From a virus (lineage: Duplodnaviria > Heunggongvirae > Uroviricota > Caudoviricetes): a stretch of DNA of 46,501 nt. This document shows, one piece after another, positions 11,708-46,192 of the stretch. Numbering within the stretch: position 1 is the stretch's first letter; every line of letters starts with the position of its first letter. Position numbers and translations under genes: made by a program. The stretch is from IMG/VR virus record IMGVR_UViG_2711768023_000006. One strand, 5' to 3'. The notes beneath the pieces are model-generated. The model saw only the letters and a program-made list of their open reading frames with translations, searched no databases and was not told the DNA's origin.

Positions 11708-12281
11708 ATGAATCGCGCTTCCCTGATTACCTTAATACATGTCGCAAAACGCGATCTACAGCTTGACCATGATACCTATACATCCGCGCTGCTGGCAGCC
11801 ACCGGCAAATCCAGTTGCCGTGATATGTCACCCGGTGAGTTATCCCGCGTGCTGGATGTTTTCAAAAAACGCGGTTTTAAAGTGCGTCAGAAGCCGGTTA
11901 ACCGGGCCTTAAAACCGGGTACGGTGACCGCCAAAATTCGCGCCATCTGGAAAGTGATGCACCGGCAGGGATTTATCTCTGATGGCGGGGAAACGGCCCT
12001 TAACCGCTGGGTGAAATCGCAGACGGCCGCGCNNNNNNNNNNNNNNNNNNNNNNNNNNNNNNNNNNNNNNNNNNNNNNNNNNNNNNNNNNNNNNNNNNNN
12101 NNNNNNNNNNNNNNNNNNNNNNNNNNNNNNNNNNNNNNNNCCCGCGCTGGCCTCTGATGTGCTGGAGCGTCTCAAACGCTGGCACCGCCGCAAAATGCTG
12201 GCAGCCCTGGATATGTCGGAACGTGCAGTGATGAGTTATGAGCGTGTTTGCAGGCTGTATGAAAAATCATTCCCCCGTTAA
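11708..12281 (+). CDS. gemA: GemA/gp16-like protein (interrupted by 108-N assembly gap)
   Basis: MNRASLITLIHVAKRDLQLD... N-terminus; C-terminal frame after the gap ends at 12279-12281; true length unknown. Confidence 0.55.
12033..12140. other. Assembly gap (108 N)
   Basis: Run of n characters inside gemA. Confidence 0.99.
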
Positions 12282-12351: not shown

Positions 12352-12774
12352 ATGGCTGAAACACAGATGAGCATGTTTGGTGACAGCGAACAGCTGCACG
12401 CGCTGATTGACCGTCTGGATGATATTCCTGATGATGAGCTGAAAAAGAACTGGCCCGGCACGCTGCGGGACCTGGTTGATGTGATCAGTGCTGAACTGCA
12501 CCGTCAGGGGATTGAACCTGCTCAGGCGGGAATGCTTGCCCGTAAGGTTGCAGCCGCACAGGCCGGGTACATGGGCGGGCGTGGTTATTATCTCCCGGTC
12601 GGTGAATCCCTTTTCACCGAACTGCGCAATAATGAAATTTTTTCCCGCTGGAGCCAGGGCGAAAAAATTGAAACCCTGCGCCGCCACTACCAGATGTCAG
12701 AGACGCAGATTTACTCCGTTATCCGCAACCAGCGTCGCCTGCATCAGGAACGCACGCAGCCACGGCTTTTCTGA
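12352..12774 (+). CDS. Mor/C-family late transcription activator
   Basis: 140 aa; C-terminal HTH ...ETLRRHYQMSETQIYSVIRNQRR resembles Mu Mor/C; sits between gemA and lysis genes. Confidence 0.7.
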   Translation: MAETQMSMFGDSEQLHALIDRLDDIPDDELKKNWPGTLRDLVDVISAELHRQGIEPAQAGMLARKVAAAQAGYMGGRGYYLPVGESLFTELRNNEIFSRWSQGEKIETLRRHYQMSETQIYSVIRNQRRLHQERTQPRLF

Positions 12775-12845
12775 TATTCCGCAAATCCTGCCCCCTTTTC
12801 CTCACGGTTACGCTGACTCAGAGAACACCATGAGACAGCGTAACA

Positions 12846-20235: not shown

Positions 20236-20356
20236 CGGTCAGTGGCGGGGGTCGAACCCGCATACATGATCCACCCGGAGGCAGGCACCGACTTTACCAG
20301 TTAAGCGTACACTGACCGCCTGTTTATTTTATATTCATCCTTTATGCGGAGGCAAT

Positions 20357-36345: not shown

Positions 36346-36918
36346 ATGCTGATTGGGTATATCAGGGTGTCAACAAATGACCAGAATACGGCGCTACAAA
36401 GAAATGCGCTGGAATGTGCAGGATGTGAGCTGTTTTTCGAAGACAGAATAAGCGGTAAGACAAGGGAGCGTCCCGGACTTAAACGCGCATTAAAGCGACT
36501 CCGGCCAGGGGATACCCTGCTGGTCTGGAAACTGGATCGCCTTGGACGCAGTATGCAGCACCTTGTCCTTTTAACAGAAGAACTCCGGCAACGCGGCGTT
36601 AACTTCCGCAGCATTACGGACAATATTGATACATCCACTCCCATGGGACGTTTCTTTTTCCATATAATGGGCGCGCTGGCGGAAATGGAGCGGGAACTCA
36701 TTATTGAACGTACACGCGCGGGTCTTGCTGCTGCCCGTGCTCAGGGGCGTCATGGCGGCAGACCTCAGAAACTGACAGAGAAAGAGCGGGAGCAAATCGC
36801 CCGTTTGCTGGCTAATGGCGAGTCCCGTAAACAAATCGCACTGATATTTGATATTGGCCTTTCCACCCTTTATCGTTATTTTCCTGCCTCACCAGCTCCG
36901 TCACCAAAAGTACCGTGA
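36346..36918 (+). CDS. gin: Serine recombinase, DNA invertase Gin/Hin/Pin family
   Basis: MLIGYIRVSTNDQNTALQRNALECAGCE...GDTLLVWKLDRLGRSMQHL...MGRFFFHIMGALAEMERELIIERT, near-identical motifs to Gin. Confidence 0.95.
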   Translation: MLIGYIRVSTNDQNTALQRNALECAGCELFFEDRISGKTRERPGLKRALKRLRPGDTLLVWKLDRLGRSMQHLVLLTEELRQRGVNFRSITDNIDTSTPMGRFFFHIMGALAEMERELIIERTRAGLAAARAQGRHGGRPQKLTEKEREQIARLLANGESRKQIALIFDIGLSTLYRYFPASPAPSPKVP

Positions 36919-37003
36919 CGCTTTTTTGAATTTCCGCAAAACACATATTTTTCAGCGGTCGCTATTCTGACTCTGTTTAATTCAGAAACAGGCAGAAAAG
37001 ACG

Positions 37004-39058
37004 ATGTCAGACTCCAAGTGGAAAATGCTCTCCGCCATGCCCGGAGAGTTTTCAGTCAAGGTTGCCGGTGGCACGGTGGCATTTATTGAAAGCCCTTTCC
37101 GCCCTTCGGGTAATAAAGGGGGGATCACCTTCGCAGACTGCGTGATCCGCTTCAGCACGAAAGAGCCATTATGGGTAATGCCGGTATCCGGTAATCCCAG
37201 TGCAGAAATCACCAGTTCAGGCGTGACTGGCATCATTCCAATCACATCTGACGTGGCCGGAACGCTCACGCCCTCCGACTGGAATGCACCGGATAACGCC
37301 GGGCCTTCCGGTAGCACGAATGGCAGCAGTTCAGAGCCGGAATATTACTTTGTTGTCATTCTCGCGGGTCAGTCAAATGGCATGGCCTACGGCGAGGGGC
37401 TGCCGTTACCGGATTCGTTTGACCGCCCGGACCCACGCATTAAGCAACTGGCACGCCGCAGTACGGTAACGCCCAACGGTACGTCGTGTACATACAACGA
37501 CATCATTCCGGCAGACCACTGCCTGCATGATGTTCAGGATATGAGCGGGATAAACCACCCGAAAGCTGATCTGGCAAAAGGCCAGTACGGGACTGTCGGT
37601 CAGGGGTTGCATATTGCCAAAAAACTGCTTCCCTATATCCCACAGAATGCCGGGATACTTCTGGTGCCCTGTTGTCGTGGCGGGTCAGCATTCACCACTG
37701 GAGCCGACGGCTCATTCAGTGAGGCCAGCGGTGCTTCCGCTGATTCTTCACGCTGGGGGGCCGGTAAACCTCTGTATCAGGACCTGGTAAGCCGCACCAA
37801 AGTCGCGCTGGCGAAAAACCCGAAAAACAAACTTCTGGCTGTGGTCTGGATGCAGGGAGAGGCAGACCTTGCCTCAGGAAGCCAGCAGCATAATAGTTTA
37901 TTCACGGCCATGGTTCAGCAGTTCAGAACTGACCTGGCTCCGCTTGCTGCGCAGTGCGTGAGTGGAAATGCCACCACGGTGCCGTGGATTTGCGGTGATA
38001 CCACGTATTACTGGAAAAACGCTGGCACCGATAAATATGAGGCAGTATACGGTGGCTACAAAGGCAAGGAAGCACAGAAAATTTTCTTTGTACCGTTCCT
38101 GACGGATGAGAATGGACAGAGCACGCCAACGAATGCTCCGGCGGAAGACCCGGATATTGTGGCTGTCGGGTATTACGGTGCAGCATCCCGAACCCAGGGC
38201 AGTTTTGTTTCGACACAGCGTGACAGCCATTTCAGCTCATGGGCACGCAGGGGCGTCATTTCAGACCGTCTGGCCTCAGCTATTATGCTCCATGCAGGGC
38301 GCACGGCTGAACTGATGCGTGGGCAGACCGTGACACCACCGGATGAGAAGCCGTCACCTGATACACCATCAAAACCGTCCACGCCACCCGCAGACACCAC
38401 GACGATGAGTACGCTATTTGCTTACCGGGCATCTGAGTCTGAAGGACGGTTGACACCACAGGGTTGGGCTGCCGGAGGTGGCAAGGCTCAAATCGTGGAT
38501 GATGCCGGAGCCAGCGGGGGTAAGGCAATGAAACTGACCAAGGAAACAGGAAGAGCCCCCTGGTACCTTGAGCATGATGCTGGTAATGGTGCGGACCTGC
38601 TGGGTAAAGGTGGTCTTGTCAGTTGTCGTTTTAAACTCGATGGCGCGCTTACGGCTAATCAGTACGCACTGGCGCTGTACTGGCCGGTTTCTGCCCTGCC
38701 GCAAGGGGTTACTCTGGAAGGAAATGCCGGTCATAACCTGCTGGCATCGTTCTACGTACAGAGCGATGCCACAGACCTTAACGTGATGTATCACAAAGGA
38801 AACACGGCGCAGAACACGAAGCTGGGGTCATTCGGCGCATTTAATAACGAATGGCATACGCTGGGCTTCCGTTTTGCCGGTAACAACAGTATTGAGGTGA
38901 CGCCGGTCATTGATGGTAAGGACGGGACACCATTCATGCTGTCGCAGTCTCCGGTCGGCACGTTTACGGCAGACAAGTTGCGCGTGACCGATATCACTAA
39001 AAATGCGACTTACCCGGTACTGATTGACAGTATCGTGGTGGAAGTGAATAACGCGTAA
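37004..39058 (+). CDS. SGNH/sialate-O-acetylesterase-like hydrolase with Pro/Thr linker and C-terminal beta-rich domain
   Basis: 684 aa; GQSNGMAYGEG block with catalytic Ser, downstream RDSH (Asp/His) block; linker PPDEKPSPDTPSKPSTPPADTTT; no signal peptide evident. Confidence 0.6.
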   Translation: MSDSKWKMLSAMPGEFSVKVAGGTVAFIESPFRPSGNKGGITFADCVIRFSTKEPLWVMPVSGNPSAEITSSGVTGIIPITSDVAGTLTPSDWNAPDNAGPSGSTNGSSSEPEYYFVVILAGQSNGMAYGEGLPLPDSFDRPDPRIKQLARRSTVTPNGTSCTYNDIIPADHCLHDVQDMSGINHPKADLAKGQYGTVGQGLHIAKKLLPYIPQNAGILLVPCCRGGSAFTTGADGSFSEASGASADSSRWGAGKPLYQDLVSRTKVALAKNPKNKLLAVVWMQGEADLASGSQQHNSLFTAMVQQFRTDLAPLAAQCVSGNATTVPWICGDTTYYWKNAGTDKYEAVYGGYKGKEAQKIFFVPFLTDENGQSTPTNAPAEDPDIVAVGYYGAASRTQGSFVSTQRDSHFSSWARRGVISDRLASAIMLHAGRTAELMRGQTVTPPDEKPSPDTPSKPSTPPADTTTMSTLFAYRASESEGRLTPQGWAAGGGKAQIVDDAGASGGKAMKLTKETGRAPWYLEHDAGNGADLLGKGGLVSCRFKLDGALTANQYALALYWPVSALPQGVTLEGNAGHNLLASFYVQSDATDLNVMYHKGNTAQNTKLGSFGAFNNEWHTLGFRFAGNNSIEVTPVIDGKDGTPFMLSQSPVGTFTADKLRVTDITKNATYPVLIDSIVVEVNNA

Positions 39059-39202
39059 GCAGGATAAAAAAATGCCGCCGGTAAGGGAAAACAAGAAACC
39101 GGCGGCAAAAAGATCGTTATATCCAAAGCAAAAAATGCAGTGCACCTTTTTACCTAACAGATATTACCGGTGTCAACACCATGTCAATAATTGGGAGGGA
39201 TA

Positions 39203-39385
39203 ATGACATTTTTACAGCTTATTTTATTGTATTTCTGCACGGCAGTATGTGCGTTATATCTGGTGAGTGGTGGTTATAAGGCCATCAGAAATTATGTTCG
39301 CCGCAAAATTGAGGACGCAGCAGCTGAAAAACTCAGTAAAACAGCGCAGGTAACTCCGCTCCCAAAAGACCCGACCCAGCCCTGA
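39203..39385 (+). CDS. Small membrane protein
   Basis: MTFLQLILLYFCTAVCALYLVSGG TM segment; RBS GGGAGGG before ATG 39203. Confidence 0.45.
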   Translation: MTFLQLILLYFCTAVCALYLVSGGYKAIRNYVRRKIEDAAAEKLSKTAQVTPLPKDPTQP

Positions 39386-39420
39386 TTGCAGGGCTTTATT
39401 CCCGCATAAGGAGGATATAC

Positions 39421-39675
39421 ATGCCAGAAATTAAAGGCACCGTCACTGAAGACCTGGTAAAACAGGCACTGTATTCCGGTGAAGTAAATAAGTTGCTGAA
39501 AGCGCAGGTCCGCAAGGATTTTGAGGCACAAATCGACACTTACGTTGATGAAGTGCTGGCAAAACTTATTGGGCCAGCAGTTGCGGCCAGTGATGCTGAT
39601 AATGAGCCGAAAACCGACGCGCAGCCAGAGCAACCAGACCCGGCTCAGCCCGGAACTGACAGTACCATGATGTAA
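39421..39675 (+). CDS. hypothetical acidic protein
   Basis: 84 aa with strong RBS AAGGAGG. Confidence 0.5.
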   Translation: MPEIKGTVTEDLVKQALYSGEVNKLLKAQVRKDFEAQIDTYVDEVLAKLIGPAVAASDADNEPKTDAQPEQPDPAQPGTDSTMM

Positions 39676-39842
39676 CAATACAAACCGGTGGTGTCCTCTG
39701 CCGGTTTGACACTAATGAAAACATCTTTGCCGCTATCCAGCCATATGTAATCGCTGGATAGTATTTCGTATTCAGAAATATAGCTGCTTATGGAGCAGTC
39801 AATCCTGCTTCCCCATCCGGGCAGGCAAATGAACCGGTATCA

Positions 39843-40136
39843 TTAGTCCGATTCACGCTTTTGTAGAATCGTTCCCAGAATGCTATACAGCTCATTAGCC
39901 TGTTGCTCCATCATTGAGACGGAGGCTATACGGTGCAAAGTGATTTCAGGAGGTGGCACACCTCCATCTTCTTGCTGTGGAGGAAAAACATAAGATTTAA
40001 TAAAAAAGTTGAAGCATATGAACTCTCCCGCACTCGAACTGTATTTGCAGGCATCTGAATAATCGGAAAAATAATCATTATAGATTTCCGCATTTTCAAT
40101 CATTTTTCGATTTCTCGTCGTTACATGATTGTCCAT
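39843..40136 (-). CDS. hypothetical protein, divergent from com-mom
   Basis: 97-aa minus-strand ORF; AT-rich intergenic region shared with com-mom. Confidence 0.4.
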   Translation of the reverse strand: MDNHVTTRNRKMIENAEIYNDYFSDYSDACKYSSSAGEFICFNFFIKSYVFPPQQEDGGVPPPEITLHRIASVSMMEQQANELYSILGTILQKRESD

Positions 40137-40254
40137 AGCAGCCTCTTACGCTGGCAATTAACCAATTGACTTCTATAAATTAGTTGATTTGTTTGCTTTG
40201 CGGTATTCAAATGTACAATCATTCAGCACTTATGCGTTACAGCACCGTTTAAAA

Positions 40255-40392
40255 TTAGTGATCAAACTCATAAATTTTCGCTAATGACATTTCGTGTTAT
40301 TTGTTGTATCAATTAAATAAATCAAATCGATCGTTTTTGTCGATCGATTGAGTGATAAAGATATCAACAACAAAGCAGGAGGTTATGCGGCC
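40255..40392 (+). promoter_or_regulatory. com-mom upstream regulatory region with GATC cluster
   Basis: GATC at 40260-40263, 40329-40332 and 40342-40345 upstream of com start. Confidence 0.45.
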
Positions 40393-40593
40393 ATGTATCG
40401 AAACATACGGTGCCGACATTGTAACAAGCTACTGGCACGAGCCAGCTTCAGTTATCTGGAAGTTAAATGTCCGCGCTGTAAAACCCTCAATCAAATCACA
40501 TCTCAGAGCGCCACAGAGCACCCCACATACACAAGGAAATCCTGTCGTGGGGAACAGAAAGCAAGTTACATCCCGTATCATCAGCACGCCTGA
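40393..40593 (+). CDS. com: Com-like zinc-finger translational activator of mom
   Basis: [17 protein letters not shown]...VKCPRCKT resembles Mu Com (MKSIRCKNCNKLL...RCPRCK); RBS AGGAGG; overlaps mom. Confidence 0.7.
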
Positions 40594-41284
40594 ACTTATT
40601 CACTATAACGACAATATCGTCGGTTATGGCTCCCGTGAGTTACGGGTTGAGACAATAAGTTGCTGGCTGGCCCGGCTGGTCGTCGTCAATAAACATTACA
40701 GCCATCGTTTCGTAAATAATTCCTACCTTCATCTGGGCATATTTTCAGAACGGGAGCTGGTTGGCGTAATGCAATGGGGTTATGCCCTTAATCCAAACAA
40801 TGGTGCACGCGTCGTAACTGGCACGCAGAACCGCGAATATATGGAGCTTAACCGGTTATGGCTGCATGACTGTATGCCGAGAAACTCCGAATCAAGGGCA
40901 ATCAGTTACGCGCTCAAACTAATCAGACAACTTTATCCGCAGGTGCAGTGGGTTCAGTCGTTTGCAGATGAGCGTTGTGGCTGTCTTGGTGTCGTGTACC
41001 AGGCAAGCAATTTTGATTATGTAGGCAGTCATGAAACAACATTCTATGAACTTGATGGCGAGTGGTATCACGAGATTTGCAAGAATGCAATCAAACGAGG
41101 AGGACAGCGAGGTGAACATCTGCGGGCTAATATCGACAGAGCCAGTGTTCATAAATTCCGTCAGTTTCGTTACATCCGGTTTCTGGACAAGAGAGCCAGA
41201 AAACGCCTTAACACAAAGCTATTCAAAGTCCAGCCTTACCCAAAACCACAAACAGTTAAAACTGGTTTGAAAGAGAGTGAATGA
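40547..41284 (+). CDS. mom: Mom-like DNA modification enzyme (adenine modification); start uncertain
   Basis: ...[43 protein letters not shown]...[11 protein letters not shown]...[23 protein letters not shown] matches Mu Mom; GTG at 40547 with RBS AAGGA; ORF extends upstream to 40352. Confidence 0.8.
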
Positions 41285-41324
41285 ACGCTTAAAAACTCAT
41301 TCTAAAACTCAAAAGAAAAGCGCC

Positions 41325-41412
41325 GATTTAGTATCAAATAAGTTGCGTATCGGCGTTTTTCAGCGGTATCAAATGAAATGCAAATCGGTATCAAAAAAAT
41401 CGCCGCGCTATA
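41325..41412 (+). promoter_or_regulatory. Prophage right end (attR) with three inverted transposase-binding-like repeats
   Basis: CGGTATCAAA at 41364-41373 and 41386-41395, variant AGTATCAAA at 41330-41338; terminal ...GCGCTATA mirrors left terminal TATAACC. Confidence 0.6.
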
Positions 41413-41998
41413 GACAGCCTAAGCGGCTGCTGACCTCCCTGACCATGCTGTAAATCTCTTTATCCTGGTTGTCACAGAATAAGCCCGGTAAAATACGGGC
41501 TTATGAACGACATCTCTTCTGACGACATCTTCCTGCTGAAACAGCGCCTTGCCGAACGTCAGTTGAAAACGAAACCGCTGCTGAAATCCCTGGAAAGCTG
41601 GCTGCGTGAAAAGATGAAAACCCTGTCGCGACACTCAGAACTGGCGAAAGCGTTCGCATACGCCCTGAACCAGTGGCCGGCGCTGACGTACTATGCAGAT
41701 GATGGCTGGGCTGAGGCGGACAATAACATCGCTGAAAATGCGTTGCGGATGGTCAGTCTGGGCCGCAAAAACTACCTGTTCTTCGGTTCGGATCATGGAG
41801 GAGAGCGGGGAGCGCTGCTGTACAGCCTGATCGGGACGTGCAAACTGAACGGAGTGGAGCCAGAAAGCTACCTCCGCTATGTCCTTGACGTCATAGCCGA
41901 CTGGCCGATAAACCGGGTCGGCGAACTGCTCCCCTGGCGCGTAGCACTGCCGACTGAATAACACATTCCCGTCAATACGGTTCTTGCTGCACGCTTAC
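41413..41998 (+). mobile_element. IS66-family element, right portion (tnpB 3' end, internally deleted tnpC, right terminus)
   Basis: QPKRLLTSLTML* at 41415-41453; tnpC remnant; ends ...CACGCTTAC, complementary to the IS66-family GTAAGCG terminal motif. Confidence 0.7.
41503..41961 (+). pseudogene. IS66 tnpC, internally deleted (N-terminal leader fused to C-terminal ~130 aa)
   Basis: ...MKTLSRHSELAKAFAYALNQW...DNNIAENALRMVSLGRKNYLFFGSDHGGERGALLYSLIGTCKLNGVEPESYLRYVL...LLPW matches transposase C-terminus only; 152 aa versus ~520 expected. Confidence 0.75.
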
Positions 41999-42014
41999 GG
42001 TAAACACCCCGGAA

Positions 42015-43187
42015 GTGGTGATGCACACTGTTGCTGATGTGATGACAGGAAACGATGGTGAATACTGTTTCCATGCGCGGACTGGAAAATATGGTGTGTA
42101 TCTGAAACCGGGCTGGCACAACGAGTACAACGTTGGCGACATTGCTGTATATGAGGACTCAAAGCCCGGCACGCTGAATGACTTTCTGATTGCTCCTGAT
42201 GAGGGCGACCTGAAACCGGATGTCGTCAAACGCTTTGAGGAAATGGTGGCGCAGGCGCAGCAGAGCGCCGGGGCCGCAGCCGGAAACGCACAGCAGACGG
42301 CGCAGGATGTGGCGGCAGCCGCAGGTTATGCCCGCGCAGCAGAGCAGGCCAAAAATGACATTGATGCTGCGCTGACCGGCACTCTGAAAACGGCTAACCA
42401 TCTGTCTGAAATCGCAGCAGCAGGCGAAAAGGCACAACAGAAGTCCCGGGATAATCTGGGGCTGAAAAGTGCGGCCACGATGGAAGCACAGAGCGACATT
42501 TACGACCGGACAAAAGGCCGTCTGGCGATACCCGGCGCATTCGGCTTTGGGTGTGCTTTTCTGCCTGAAGATGTTATCCGTTTTGACACTAAGAGTGATT
42601 TCCTGGCCTGGGTAAGGAATGCGCTGCCAGGTGAATATTCCGTTGCTGGCCCCTACGACATCATCATACCCGACACACGGTTTGAAGGGGTGCTCAGCAT
42701 CCGGTGGACTGATGCACGCCCTGAGACAACAGAACCGAGGTACAGAGCCAAATCCCTTACTTTTTACGGCATTAACGGCCCCATTTATCACACCCGCTAC
42801 TGCTACTGGCCCATATCCAGACTGACTGGCTGGGTGAAAATAAATATAACCACAGAAGATATTATTTACAGAATCGTGGCGAGCTCTGTCTGCAACAGAT
42901 GGGGAGACCCTGACATTGGCGGGCTGATTATTGCTGCGTACCAGGGAGAAGCTGACGGTGATAAAGTCATCAGACTTGTCAGGGGGCAGTCATACAGAGG
43001 CTCACGACTGGGACCGGTGGGGATTTCAGTGCCCAGTACTCCCACCGGAACGTATATAGCATCCCCACAATTTTTCATTACGGGATGTTCAGAGCATTCA
43101 TTACCGGGGTCATATTGCGCCCTGTCCGGGGTGCCGGATGCTCATGTCTCTGGCGCAATGCCCGGGCTTTTTATTCGCACATCGTGA
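42015..43187 (+). pseudogene. 5'-truncated phage tail fibre gene (second prophage remnant)
   Basis: Tail-fibre-like C-terminal region with Ala/Gln-rich coiled segment; ORF begins right at IS66 end; followed by Tfa. Confidence 0.55.
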
Positions 43188-43197
43188 GGAATGCACC

Positions 43198-43761
43198 GTG
43201 GAAATTAAAAAAATCATTAATCCCCGTTATACCGAAAGTGGCGCAGTAGACTGTGACGTTTTTTTTGACGACAGGGACCAGGCAGTCCCCTACACAGCCA
43301 CCGCTGATGATGTCGCACCGACGGGTCAGCGAATCTGGCAGGAACTGCAAAGTGGCAAATGGGGTGAGATAGCCCCATTCACTGTGACACCAGAAATGCT
43401 GGAAGCGGCCAGAGAGGCCAGACGTCAGGAAATTGAAGCATGGCGCACAGAACAGGAGGCGAAGCCGTTCACGTTTGAATGGAACGGTCGTATCTGGAAT
43501 GCTGGCCCCAACTCACTGGGCCGCCTGTCCCCGGTAGTCATGCTGGCAAAATCTGTCACAGCACAAACACATATGGCGTGGAGCGATGCCGATAATCAGC
43601 AGGTGAAACTGTCGATGCCGGAACTGGAAGAACTGGCGGCAGCAATGGTGCAGGCGCAGGTCGATCGCAACGATGAGATTTATCGCCGTCAGCGTGAAAT
43701 GAAAGAGGAGCTGAGCAGTCTGGATGATTTGGCTTCAATTCGGGCGTTTGACGTTAAGTAA
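43198..43761 (+). CDS. Tail fibre assembly protein (Tfa)
   Basis: GTG at 43198 with RBS TGAGGA; VEIKKIINPRYTESGAVDCDVFFDD... typical Tfa N-terminus. Confidence 0.65.
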   Translation: MEIKKIINPRYTESGAVDCDVFFDDRDQAVPYTATADDVAPTGQRIWQELQSGKWGEIAPFTVTPEMLEAAREARRQEIEAWRTEQEAKPFTFEWNGRIWNAGPNSLGRLSPVVMLAKSVTAQTHMAWSDADNQQVKLSMPELEELAAAMVQAQVDRNDEIYRRQREMKEELSSLDDLASIRAFDVK

Positions 43762-43858: not shown

Positions 43859-44404
43859 CTACAGCACCAAATCAGGTCTGGGTGGCGGACCTGACGTATG
43901 TTGCCACACAGGAGGGATGGTTGTACCTCGCTGGCATCAAAGATGTTTATACGTGCGAAATTGTCGGCTACGCCATGGGAGAGCGCATGACAAAAGAGCT
44001 GACAGGTAAAGCCCTGTTTATGGCGCTCAGGAGCCAGCGCCCACCTGCCGGGCTAATCCACCACTCTGATCGAGGTTCACAGTACTGCGCATACGATTAC
44101 CGGGTCATACAGGAGCAGTCTGGTCTGAAAACATCAATGTCGCGTAAAGGTAACTGTTACGACAACGCTCCGATGGAAAGCTTCTGGGGAACGCTGAAAA
44201 ATGAGAGCCTGAGCCACTATCGTTTTAATAACCGGGATGAAGCCATCTCAGTAATACGGGAATACATTGAGATTTTCTACAATCGTCAGCGTCGTCACTC
44301 TCGTCTGGGGAATATCTCCCCGGCAGCCTTCAGGGAAAAATATCATCAGATGGCTGCTTAAAAAAAGAACAAATGGTAGTGTCCGCTATTGCCAGTACAC
44401 CTCA
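43859..44404 (+). mobile_element. IS600 partial copy (3' 546 bp) after N at 43858
   Basis: Identical to 1667-2212 of first copy incl. orfB C-terminus and terminal ...GCCAGTACACCTCA. Confidence 0.85.
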
Positions 44405-44476: not shown

Positions 44477-46192
44477 TTATGAATGGTGCAGTTGTGAGCC
44501 GTTTTCAGACAATCGCAGGGCCAGTACCTCGTCAGTCAGCTGACGGTAAATCTGCTGTTCAGTCTCACGCATCACCTGTGCACCGGCTTCCCTCTCCGCA
44601 TCCGCATCACCGCTCAGACCTGATGCTTTCAGCCGGTCAGCCACCCTCTGAGGGTACTCATTCTCCAGCATCTCATATTTCTGCTCTTCTGCCAGCGCCC
44701 AGCGGTCAGCTTCCGTACGCTTCAGTACAGCATGCCATGGTCCCCAGAGGGAGAACCAGTCCGTAAATTCATTCTCTTCACGGCTTCTGACCATGGCTTC
44801 GGCAGTGCGGAGGTCATTTGCTGTCACTCCCGACACGCCATAGAAACGCATTTCCTTCACGGCAGTGGAGAGCTGAAGTTTCTCTGCGAGCATGGTCTGG
44901 AAGGCCAGGTAGACTTCTATCTCATCCACAAAATGGAGAGTTCTGACTTTATCCCGGGCAATGTCCTCCAGAATTTCGAGGCGGAACATTTCCCTGCCCA
45001 GGGAGAGCAGAGCGCCGGTATCATTATCGAAAAGGCCTTCTGATGCCTGATGGACCAGGAGGGTTTTCCGGAGATTGTTCCATGTGAGCGCGACACGGTC
45101 CTCACAGCTCTCAGTGGCATCAGCAGCAACAGCGAAAGACTGCTGTCGAAGCTCCGCAGAGGCACTGAGTTTTTCCAGCCATGCAGCGACCTGTTCACGG
45201 AATCCGGAGGTATTGCGTGCAGAGACGGTATCGGAAAGGCGGTCAAGGAACGCGGAAAAGGTGTTGGCGTGCTCTTCATGTTCAAAAGCATGCCATATCT
45301 GTGATACATCAGATTGTTTGTTTTCCGGGAACCATGCTGTCACGGCATCAGCCAGGGGGCGATGGAGTGTATTCTGTTGTCCGTCACTCATGGAGAAGTA
45401 AATCCGTGGGCCGTGGTAGTCCGGTTGGGCGGTTTGTTGCGACAGAGACTCCCTGATCCGTGAGGACAGAGGATTGTCTTCGAGGATGATAGTGCAGGTC
45501 GGATCAAGGCTAAGTATATTTTCCGGAATGTATGTGATGCGATTCTCGCGGCACCGGAAAAATATCTCGGTTTCCTCTGAGTGATGATTTCTTACAGGTA
45601 CGGCTGGTAGGCTTTCCAGAAGATTAGTACTTACATCGAGCGCTTCCAGTGATTCAGGTAACTCAGGGAGAAATGTCAGCTGGTTATTTCTTACTGAGAG
45701 CACTTCCAGCGATGTAGGTAATTCAGGAAGCATGGTTAGCTGATTGTTATCTGCATTAATATATTCCAGCAATGCAGGCAATTCAGGAAGCATGGTTAGT
45801 TGGTTGTTATCTACATCAAGATGTTTCAGAGATGCGGGTAATTCAGGAAGTGTTGACAGGTGATTGTCACAGGCGTCAAGGTATTCCAGCGATGCTGGCA
45901 ATTCTGGTAATGATATTAGGGCATTCTGAGTAATTTCCAGAACAGTGATTTGAGGTGGTAAGTTGTCAGGTAGCGAGGACAGATTTAAACGATTCAGTTG
46001 AAGCTCACTGAACTGATTGATGAGACATTCTTTAAGTAGGGAGACCGCTTCATTCCGATTTTCACCGGGGAGCGCTTGTTTTTCCCATTTATCCCATGCT
46101 GAAAAGTAATCAGCATATGTACCGGAAATAGTGTTATAAAAAGAATTTTGGGACAATGAAAAGTTATTATTTATCGGTAACATGATGGACAT
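44477..46192 (-). CDS. ipaH: IpaH-family type III secretion effector (LRR plus NEL E3 ubiquitin ligase domain)
   Basis: MLPINNNFSLSQNSFYNTISGTYADYFSAWDKWEKQALPGE..., LxxLPxLP leucine-rich repeats, conserved C-terminal NEL domain; canonical start probably at 46183. Confidence 0.93.
   Translation of the reverse strand: MSIMLPINNNFSLSQNSFYNTISGTYADYFSAWDKWEKQALPGENRNEAVSLLKECLINQFSELQLNRLNLSSLPDNLPPQITVLEITQNALISLPELPASLEYLDACDNHLSTLPELPASLKHLDVDNNQLTMLPELPALLEYINADNNQLTMLPELPTSLEVLSVRNNQLTFLPELPESLEALDVSTNLLESLPAVPVRNHHSEETEIFFRCRENRITYIPENILSLDPTCTIILEDNPLSSRIRESLSQQTAQPDYHGPRIYFSMSDGQQNTLHRPLADAVTAWFPENKQSDVSQIWHAFEHEEHANTFSAFLDRLSDTVSARNTSGFREQVAAWLEKLSASAELRQQSFAVAADATESCEDRVALTWNNLRKTLLVHQASEGLFDNDTGALLSLGREMFRLEILEDIARDKVRTLHFVDEIEVYLAFQTMLAEKLQLSTAVKEMRFYGVSGVTANDLRTAEAMVRSREENEFTDWFSLWGPWHAVLKRTEADRWALAEEQKYEMLENEYPQRVADRLKASGLSGDADAEREAGAQVMRETEQQIYRQLTDEVLALRLSENGSQLHHS

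Follow-up and report, generated by a model that had tools for sequence, protein, structure and literature searches.

The right end of this viral DNA raises the question of whether two overlapping genes, and the GATC sites ahead of them, make up a com-mom DNA modification module like that of phage Mu, and whether the region upstream of com is organized as it is in Mu. A sequence-only reading of positions 40255–41284 had proposed both. The window, as we use the term, is the whole stretch of DNA analyzed, 46,501 nucleotides in length (Caudoviricetes; IMG/VR record IMGVR_UViG_2711768023_000006). We consider it very probable that the locus is a Mu-type com-mom operon with Com-dependent translation of mom, a likely OxyR operator that holds a pair of Dam sites, and transcription from a weak promoter. 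The genes themselves are an already known and already annotated system, of which the window carries a modest regulatory variant.

The com and mom genes and their prophage

The product of com matches the Pfam family Zn_ribbon_Com (PF10122) with 48.2 bits against a cut-off of 22.9, and is 45% identical to Mu Com (E = 2e-14). Its translation reads KCPRCK within the N-terminal part and contains two CxxC pairs, C7/C10 and C26/C29, which provide four zinc ligands. A search of the PDB with Com found no solved relative. The gene lies directly upstream of mom and overlaps it by 47 nt (40547–40593) in a different frame. Its Shine–Dalgarno sequence (Table 1) has an equivalent in Mu com, where aggagg stands 6 nt ahead of the ATG.

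The product of mom matches the Pfam family Mom (PF25680) with 261.2 bits against a cut-off of 27.1, covering positions 1–202 of the 202 in the profile. It shares 78% identity with Mu Mom over the full 231 residues of the Mu protein, whose crystal structure (PDB 8BV8) it matches with E = 2.4e-123. Thus, the Com-like zinc finger gene overlapping the 5′ end of a Mom-like gene, as the sequence-only reading described it, is borne out by both family matches and by alignment with the Mu proteins. Based on the PGAP annotation of Escherichia coli strain 600029, identical coding sequences are obtained after mapping for both com (WP_014334043.1) and mom (WP_000528246.1). The GTG start at 40547 is homologous to the GUG of Mu and is preceded by a Shine–Dalgarno sequence, AAGGA, at 40533–40537. 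In the biochemical literature, Mu mom starts at a GUG ten codons inside the RefSeq open reading frame, from which 231-residue and 241-residue numberings have arisen (PMC7261163, PMC13219725).

Residues needed in Mu Mom are H48, Y49, R101, S114, D139 and Y149 in the 231-residue numbering (PMC7261163), which correspond to H58, Y59, R111, S124, D149 and Y159 in the 241-residue numbering of PMC13219725. In the latter numbering R111, S124 and R151 are essential, and activity is drastically lowered by alanine at H58, Y59, W48, Y159 or W181 and by R111K, as it was by D149A in earlier work; a helix-turn-helix (HTH)-like insertion at about Mu residues 175–209 is also required (PMC13219725). The Mom of the window keeps every residue identified by mutagenesis in Mu (W40, H50, Y51, R103, S116, D141, R143, Y151 and W173), and all of these are invariant in an alignment of 16 homologs that extends down to 66% identity. 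Loss of the catalytic residues, which the sequence-only reading had named as evidence that would count against it, is therefore not seen, all nine positions important in Mu being conserved. Over the HTH-like insertion the alignment with Mu is gapless and of high identity, including RGGQRG...LRAN, and on this alignment the insertion is judged to be present.

The structure of Mu Mom has been solved, and the enzyme takes glycine off Gly-tRNA(Gly) and attaches it to adenine N6 in double-stranded DNA, after which an on-base rearrangement takes place (PMC13219725). The predicted enzymatic activity of the Mom encoded here would be the same: glycine from Gly-tRNA(Gly) would be placed onto adenine N6 and rearranged to N6-carbamoylmethyl-adenine, as in Mu. 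N6-carbamoylmethyl-adenine in DNA blocks many restriction enzymes. From the conserved protein sequence we infer, on good grounds, that the prophage is able to modify its own DNA. A complete anti-restriction DNA-modification module of this kind is relevant to phage and mobilised DNA crossing restriction barriers among E. coli and Shigella strains.

The genes belong to a Mu-like transposable prophage at about 2720–41412, of which com-mom is the rightmost operon. The prophage is apparently complete, carrying transposase genes, a homolog of the late activator C and a full morphogenesis set, and other E. coli genomes have full-length copies with which it is collinear. The C homolog (12352–12774) is 40% identical to Mu C, compared with 28% to Mu Mor, and the phage therefore encodes the C-type late activator on which Mu-type control of Pmom depends. 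Late timing of com-mom expression is predicted. The surroundings of the prophage in the window are rich in IS elements. Its right-end flank is an IS66 tnpB gene, compared with a partial pseudogene of an SgrR-family regulator in strain 600029, which is consistent with insertion of the 600029 copy in an SgrR-family gene.

Table 1 Coordinates of the genes and sequence elements discussed in the text (positions in the window)
Feature	Position	Strand	Description
Mu late activator C homolog	12352–12774	+	Pfam Mor family, 107 bits; directly upstream of the lysozyme gene
GATC	40260–40263	.	69 nt from the next GATC, compared with canonical spacings of 18–19 or 31 nt
Candidate OxyR operator	40308–40344	.	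ATAGnTnnnAnCTAT-N7-ATAGnTnnnAnCTAT; best consensus match in the whole window
Perfect 9-bp inverted repeat	40325–40349	.	AATCGATCG-N7-CGATCGATT; holds Dam sites 40329–40332 and 40342–40345
Tentative -10 region	40353–40363	+	TGATAAAGAT; GATAAA/AAAGAT at the offset used by relatives; weak assignment
com Shine–Dalgarno sequence	40377–40382	+	AGGAGG, read from the sequence; kept across the window's family
com	40393–40593	+	ATG 40393 to TGA 40593; 66 aa; predicted zinc-ribbon translational activator
Candidate Com RNA target	40506–40524	+	GAG CG CC ACA GAG CA CC CC; SELEX motif match
Translation-inhibition hairpin (predicted)	40521–40552	+	CCCCAC 40521–40526 pairs with GUGGGG 40547–40552
mom	40547–41284	+	GTG start; 245 aa; predicted GNAT-fold DNA adenine N6 modification enzyme

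Predicted RNA elements for the translational control of mom

In Mu, Com binds a small hairpin located just 5′ of a translation-inhibition hairpin, and the mom GUG is in the stem of the latter. Both elements have counterparts in the window. The start-codon hairpin buries the mom GUG and encloses the mom Shine–Dalgarno sequence. It is part of the minimum-free-energy fold of 40490–40580 and, folded alone, has a free energy of -11.5 kcal/mol. The same CCCAC...GUGGG arrangement occurs in Mu and relatives.

The candidate Com target abuts this hairpin. Based on SELEX, Com recognizes a 6-nt loop that contains CC(N)2-3GAG and sits on a stem of 4 bp with C-G as the closing pair; the bipartite consensus is NGAGNNCC(N)2-3GAGNNCCNN (PMC6483171). 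The stretch at 40506–40524 is a full match to the bipartite motif, in the form GAGNNCC-N3-GAGNNCC, and aligns with the Mu Com site CUGAAUGCCUGCGAGCAUCCCAC. Its hairpin has a stem of 40508–40511 with 40518–40521, a 6-nt loop and C40511-G40518 as the closing pair; one C40509.A40520 mismatch falls within the 4 bp. In one relative (L007) a U at the first mismatch position restores the pair, and a Pseudomonas relative has a G at the second position. RNAfold alone prefers a 2-bp alternative over the 4-bp stem.

The stem covaries across 22 distinct lineages that range from Enterobacterales to Pseudomonas and Desulfovibrio. In this set, which was pre-filtered by requiring at least three of the four pairs in every sequence, 96% of the cells are paired, three of the four pairs have changed on both sides, and none of 500 shuffles reaches the score. 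The variants include AUGC/GCAU, GCAC/GUGC, ACGC/GCGU, AGGC/GCCU and GCGC/GCGC. A search of 39000–42000 against Rfam returned no family at E ≤ 1 except for one sub-threshold sRNA hit, so the Com target is absent from Rfam.

The proposal that Com governs mom translation as in Mu is thus supported at the level of sequence elements, by a Com-target hairpin and a hairpin that sequesters the start codon. In the mechanism that we propose, com and mom would be read from one transcript in which the GUG at 40547 is locked in the hairpin at 40521–40552. Com, translated first, would bind the adjacent hairpin (40508–40521, loop CACAGA) and open the lock, and Mom would be produced only when Com is present.

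A separate observation concerns related mom genes that stand without com. Many Mom homologs at about 69% identity are of this kind and are located between a Q-like antiterminator gene and the lysis genes of lambdoid-type phages. Ahead of these genes is a conserved leader of 100–140 nt with two structured domains, in the second of which a GGAG Shine–Dalgarno sequence pairs with ACC, with compensatory changes between subtypes; a comparison of this leader with Rfam gave no family match. Several of these loci also have a tRNA-Gly(UCC) gene, which either stands 110–210 nt upstream of mom in the same orientation or belongs to a small array of tRNA genes directly downstream, and tRNA-Gly(UCC) is the sole tRNA within 3 kb. 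The adjacency is notable because Mom uses Gly-tRNA(Gly) as its co-substrate; phage tRNA genes go unmentioned in the paper on this co-substrate (PMC13219725). The tRNA-Gly genes and the structured leader may interest those working on the tRNA-dependent chemistry of Mom.

The GATC pair and the promoter region

Three GATC sites within 90 bp upstream had been likened to the Dam- and OxyR-controlled region of the Mu mom promoter. The sites are exactly where they were placed, at 40260, 40329 and 40342; they span 82 bp and precede the com ATG by 133, 64 and 51 nt. By number they are unremarkable. Triplets spanning no more than 86 bp occur twice in the window (3.1 expected under random placement), pairs spaced by no more than 13 nt four times (4.7 expected), and GATC is under-represented overall (128 sites, compared with 184 ± 13 in shuffles). 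Since the cluster is no more than chance by count, the case for the GATC pair rests on conservation.

The sites at 40329 and 40342 are 13 nt apart in a perfect inverted repeat, which is preceded by ATCAATTAAAT. The Mu counterpart of the palindrome is AATCGATCggtaatacaGATCGATT, and Mu reads ATCAATTAAATCGATCGgtaatacaGATCGATT at the equivalent place. Based on this alignment, the two sites are homologous to Mu GATC II and III. The homology was found by eye and by anchored comparison; in a blastn search of the upstream region against phages, similarity to Mu was limited to mom and the 3′ end of com. We compared 53 distinct com upstream regions, drawn both from viral contigs and from genomes representative of species. 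Of these, 30 contain the 13-nt pair, including nearly all of the enterobacterial regions and none of those from Desulfovibrio or Pseudomonas. Enterobacterial regions almost always have three GATCs, with a spacing of 18–19 or 31 nt followed by one of 13 nt, and within the 53 regions no GATC was found in those from Desulfovibrio, Pseudomonas and Rhodospirillaceae. The pair is missing in lineages whose hosts are not expected to have Dam. The window's family, together with L028, has the 13-nt pair only. Across 11 distinct upstream variants of this family both GATCs are always retained, with one arm base changed in a single variant (L023), and the 13 nt just 3′ of the palindrome are variable.

The site at 40260 behaves differently from the pair. 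Close relatives of the L012 type have unrelated sequence in place of the segment around it, with GATCs at -186 and -175 instead. It is therefore probably outside the regulatory element, as judged from its spacing (Table 1) and its replacement in relatives. We also considered whether 40260 is a displaced equivalent of Mu GATC I, and this was ruled out by spacing and non-conservation. No equivalent of Mu GATC I is present in the window, where its position reads TATC/AATT, so that instead of the three GATCs spaced by 18 and 13 nt in Mu only the 13-nt pair is found. Consequently the likeness to the Mu Dam/OxyR region holds for the conserved sites at 40329 and 40342 and fails for the unconserved site at 40260. 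That the whole cluster arose by chance in an intergenic region rich in AT would agree with the triplet and close-pair counts, which equal random expectation, and with the lack of conservation of 40260. We nevertheless regard it as extremely improbable, given that 40329 and 40342 belong to a perfect palindromic element of 25 nt, which is homologous to that of Mu and kept across genera. For the pair, comparison of these sequences refutes the chance reading; for 40260 alone chance is the likely explanation.

OxyR is reported to act at the GATC cluster in Mu. In the window, the stretch at 40308–40344 agrees with the OxyR consensus at 13 of its 20 specified positions, a score of 13 that is reached at only 3 positions in 46.5 kb. 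An identical scan over the Mu GATC cluster also gave a best score of 13/20, and the two GATCs stand in the same register relative to the consensus as Mu GATC II and III. We therefore treat this stretch as a candidate OxyR operator. In the proposed control, the Dam sites in the palindrome would be part of a likely OxyR operator, to which the repressor could bind as long as the sites are unmethylated or hemimethylated; full methylation would lift the repression.

A rival explanation accepts com and mom as genuine and denies that the palindrome is an OxyR/Dam switch. The element would be bound by another protein, such as the C-like activator encoded by this phage, SeqA or Fis, or would be an inherited relic, and the late activator alone would govern transcription. 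The case for OxyR is, after all, a 13/20 consensus match, there are two GATCs compared with three in Mu, and no other candidate for a C box was seen. Moreover, if the -10 is near 40354–40363, the palindrome sits at about -30 to -50, the position of a Mor/C-type activator. However, the GATC tetranucleotides themselves are kept at 13-nt spacing where their flanks have diverged, and they are absent where the host is not expected to have Dam, as predicted for a methylation-sensing site. The register relative to the OxyR consensus, which equals that of Mu, also argues against this explanation, and we consider it rather unlikely.

A sigma-70 scan of 39700–41500 found no + strand promoter upstream of com. 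Candidate -35/-10 pairs placed by hand upstream of the GATC pair (TTGTTG/TTGTAT, with various -10s) were rejected on spacing or on the invariant positions of the -10. The tentative -10 at 40353–40363 was assigned by comparison with relatives of short spacing (L028, L029, L030 and L085), which have TATACT, TATAGT or ATAGAT 12–14 nt after the second GATC; the Mu -10 is TAAGAT. Among close relatives in the window's family the proposed -10 stretch is variable. Transcription most likely begins a few tens of nucleotides upstream of com, from what would be a weak promoter.

The distance between the GATC pair and com sets the window apart from Mu. The sites at 40342 and 40329 are 51 and 64 nt from the com ATG, compared with 78 and 91 nt in Mu, and are thus 27 nt closer. 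In Mu, the gap between the pair and com holds the C box TTATgccccaATAA, a poor -35, a T6 run and the -10. Because the second GATC of the window is only 31 nt from the com Shine–Dalgarno sequence, there is no room for a C box plus -35 and -10. The order seen in Mu, in which the GATC cluster precedes a C box and a promoter with weak -35, T-run and -10, is accordingly not found. The phage's own candidate late promoters contain CCTnaCCCCCTT, at 12791 and 20861. Our search for a C box looked for words that the com upstream region has in common with the stretches ahead of lys, of the protease gene and of the tape-measure gene. CCTnaCCCCCTT was not found upstream of com, which is a weak negative since it is based on two or three example promoters. 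Between 38557 and the end of the prophage at 41412 there is no CCCCC run and no box of the Mu type (ATAACC or TTAT..ATAA).

From this comparison we conclude that the promoter layout differs from Mu Pmom. The earlier likening to the Mu mom promoter region is apt in general and needs correction in that GATC I is absent, no Mu-like C box is visible and the pair is closer to com. Given that shorter distance, the Mu mechanism, with OxyR acting upstream of a C box, cannot apply literally. If 40353–40363 is the -10, the Dam sites would fall in the spacer and the -35 region, where a bound repressor would occlude RNA polymerase directly, unlike the upstream action in Mu. An extension of this idea is that the Dam/OxyR operator has shifted onto the core promoter with loss of the C box, and that com-mom is C-independent and epigenetically switched like agn43 or gtr. 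We consider this a highly unlikely scenario; if it were true, Mom would not be confined to late lytic growth, and the chromosome of some lysogens would be carbamoylmethylated from time to time.

Distribution and comparison with known systems

The module is widespread. It was found in at least 226 complete E. coli genomes at a query cover of at least 80%, where the best place per record is 90–100% identical, and in strain 600029 it is 99.9% identical over 40100–41418. Mu-like prophages of O157:H7 are among the carriers in E. coli, as are Mu-like insertions in Stx phages. Relative to the window, the CDS coordinates of the E. coli copies are equal and only the insertion site differs. The module is also present on many viral contigs, and its differing insertion sites imply recent transposition. 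Of 138 related loci, 77 show an overlap of com and mom, with a range from Enterobacterales to Desulfovibrio and Pseudomonas. The names used in RefSeq are ‘Com family DNA-binding transcriptional regulator’ and ‘Mom family adenine methylcarbamoylation protein’, the first of which is a misnomer in that Mu Com binds RNA.

This distribution bears on a further alternative, in which a defective prophage carries the module as a silent relic: the 27-nt shortening would have removed the activator site, leaving the open reading frames intact and without expression. Such a history would be in keeping with the lack of a recognizable promoter or C box, with the variable putative -10 stretch and with the location of the prophage within an IS-rich region. 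It is difficult to reconcile with the intact state of the open reading frames, the essential residues and the RNA control elements, or with the conservation of the module, at 95% or more, across 226 E. coli genomes and numerous viral contigs that differ in insertion site. Other short-spacing lineages have good -10 hexamers, and the prophage is full length with its transposase genes. Thus, we find a silent relic very doubtful and retain the reading of a Mu-type operon transcribed from a weak promoter. As the genes themselves hold nothing new, the compact control region with two GATCs is the sole point of research value.

The closest known counterparts are Mu (NC_000929, Mup54/Mup55), D108, SfMu and Mu-like phages of Yersinia, which have a like gene pair in the same order, with an overlap, as the last operon before the right end. 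With Mu the window shares a mom GUG buried in a CCCAC/GUGGG hairpin, a Com hairpin with a CC-N3-GAG loop, a Dam-site pair of the form ATCGATCG-N7-GATCGATT with ATCAATTAAAT ahead of it, and a C-type late activator encoded in the phage. At the DNA level, identity to Mu is about 72% and is confined to mom. Several differences are apparent. The Mu-like element of the window has two GATCs compared with three, and the Mu C box, -35 and T6 spacer have no counterpart. Unlike that of Mu, the Com hairpin has a C.A mismatch, and the C-terminus of Mom is 12 aa longer. In addition, gin abuts com in Mu, but in the window about 3.4 kb of additional genes lie between the invertase gene and com.

The other systems with which the control region can be compared are Dam/OxyR switches of bacterial and phage promoters. 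In agn43, an OxyR operator that contains GATCs underlies phase variation. Phase variation is not known for any mom gene. In the switches at E. coli agn43/flu and at the gtr operons of Salmonella and phage P22 (PMC2909390 for gtr), the GATCs are inside an OxyR-type operator near or within the core promoter. These switches produce heritable phase variation of constitutive promoters and have three to four GATCs, compared with the two of the pair in the window (PMC2909390 for gtr). By analogy, the compact spacing in the window suggests a layout like that of the agn43 and gtr switches. The compact control region of the window shows that the pair of Dam sites, and not the full layout of Mu Pmom, is what forms the conserved core of mom regulation.

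Insertion site and flanking chromosome

The Mu-like prophage (about 2720-41412) interrupts tnpB of an IS66-family element. At its left end a TnpB ORF runs into the prophage, and the tnpB sequence picks up again at 41413; 3' of this resumed tnpB, the IS66 transposase is present as its C-terminal part only (41503-41961). The repeat ATTTGATAC(C) occurs near the left phage end at 2733, 2831 and 2883 and, inverted, near the right end at 41321, 41366 and 41388. These end repeats look like transposase-binding sites.

Beyond the element, the flanks carry IS1 and IS3-family transposases (regions 195-2169 and 43882-44361). They also hold an IpaH-like type III effector and a lambdoid tail-fibre remnant. 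Together this content suggests an IS-rich chromosome of Shigella- or EIEC-like character.

Coordinates of features in the window and in related loci with com-less mom genes (L-numbers)
Feature	Location	Strand	Remark
IS66-family sequence	2408-2731; 41413-41961		flanking the prophage
tRNA-like element	20237-20316	-	Rfam tRNA 31 bits, gathering score 29
Region from invertase gene to com	36346-40136		with extra genes
Invertase gene	36346-36918		resolvase family
SASA-esterase/DUF6645 protein	37004-39058		684 aa
DUF1378 gene	about 39203-39385
DUF826 gene	39421-39675
Small divergent ORF	39843-40103/40136
Lambdoid tail-fibre remnant	42015-43761		flank of prophage
IpaH-like type III effector	44477-46192	-	LRR_TTSS + NEL E3 ligase domain
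Structured leader (examples)	L049:1375-1497; L052:1370-1488; L058:1335-1485
tRNA-Gly(UCC)	L065:633-706; L067:1310-1384; L073:1306-1379; L076:1218-1291; L080:1306-1379; L097:2457-2531; L157:2812-2885; L204:2740-2813

Likely late promoters, Com target and base composition

The motif CCTnaCCCCCTT is found at 12791 and 20861, before the lysozyme and protease genes, and in each case a T-run and a weak -10 follow about 20 nt later. The two sites are likely to be late promoters that depend on the phage's C homolog. Upstream of com the motif is missing.

The stem of the Com target, a small RNA hairpin upstream of the mom start, contains a C.A mismatch (40509 and 40520) that is common to most of this prophage family. 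One related locus, L007, has a compensating C-to-U change at the mismatch, and distant relatives have G at its second position. The mismatch looks like a half-finished compensatory substitution.

Across the whole window GATC is under-represented, with 128 sites compared with 184 +/- 13 in dinucleotide-preserving shuffles, every one of which gave a higher count. A masked run of 108 Ns occupies 12033-12140, inside the GemA-like gene, and there are single Ns at 1158 and 43858.

mom genes without com

Homologs of mom that lack com (loci L049-L082 and L094-L098) are preceded by a 5' leader, roughly 100-140 nt in length, that is conserved and structured; it is bounded by an intrinsic terminator on one side and the start codon on the other. 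In its 5' part it forms a long stem-loop, and next comes a hairpin, closing beside the start codon, in which the SD GGAG is paired with ACC. Compensatory changes distinguish three subtypes from one another (GUAC/GUAC, GCAC/GUGC and GUAU/AUAC). The leader contains no GATC sites, and an Rfam search with it returned no match. It is possibly a cis-regulatory RNA that acts in place of Com control.

In several loci a com-less mom gene is adjoined by a same-strand tRNA-Gly(UCC) gene, the sole tRNA inside 3 kb. It lies mostly 110-210 nt 5' of mom, with one case in a Met-Leu-Gly array directly 3'. The surroundings are a late region of the lambdoid type, which reads Q-like protein, Ogr-like zinc finger, mom, holin, lysozyme. 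Since the glycyl donor for Mom is Gly-tRNA(Gly) (PMC13219725), the phage may supply its own Mom co-substrate through this gene. Phage tRNA-Gly genes beside mom are not mentioned in PMC13219725.

Other prophage genes and comparison with Mu

A tRNA-like element with an over-long anticodon region (24 nt compared with 18) sits in the prophage between its head-morphogenesis and virion-morphogenesis genes. PGAP annotates it as 'tRNA-OTHER' in the E. coli strain 600029, and ARAGORN made no call on it.

Whereas gin abuts com in Mu, the window has about 3.4 kb of extra genes between the invertase gene and com. The trio of extra genes is presumably similar to the nanS-p region found in Stx phages.
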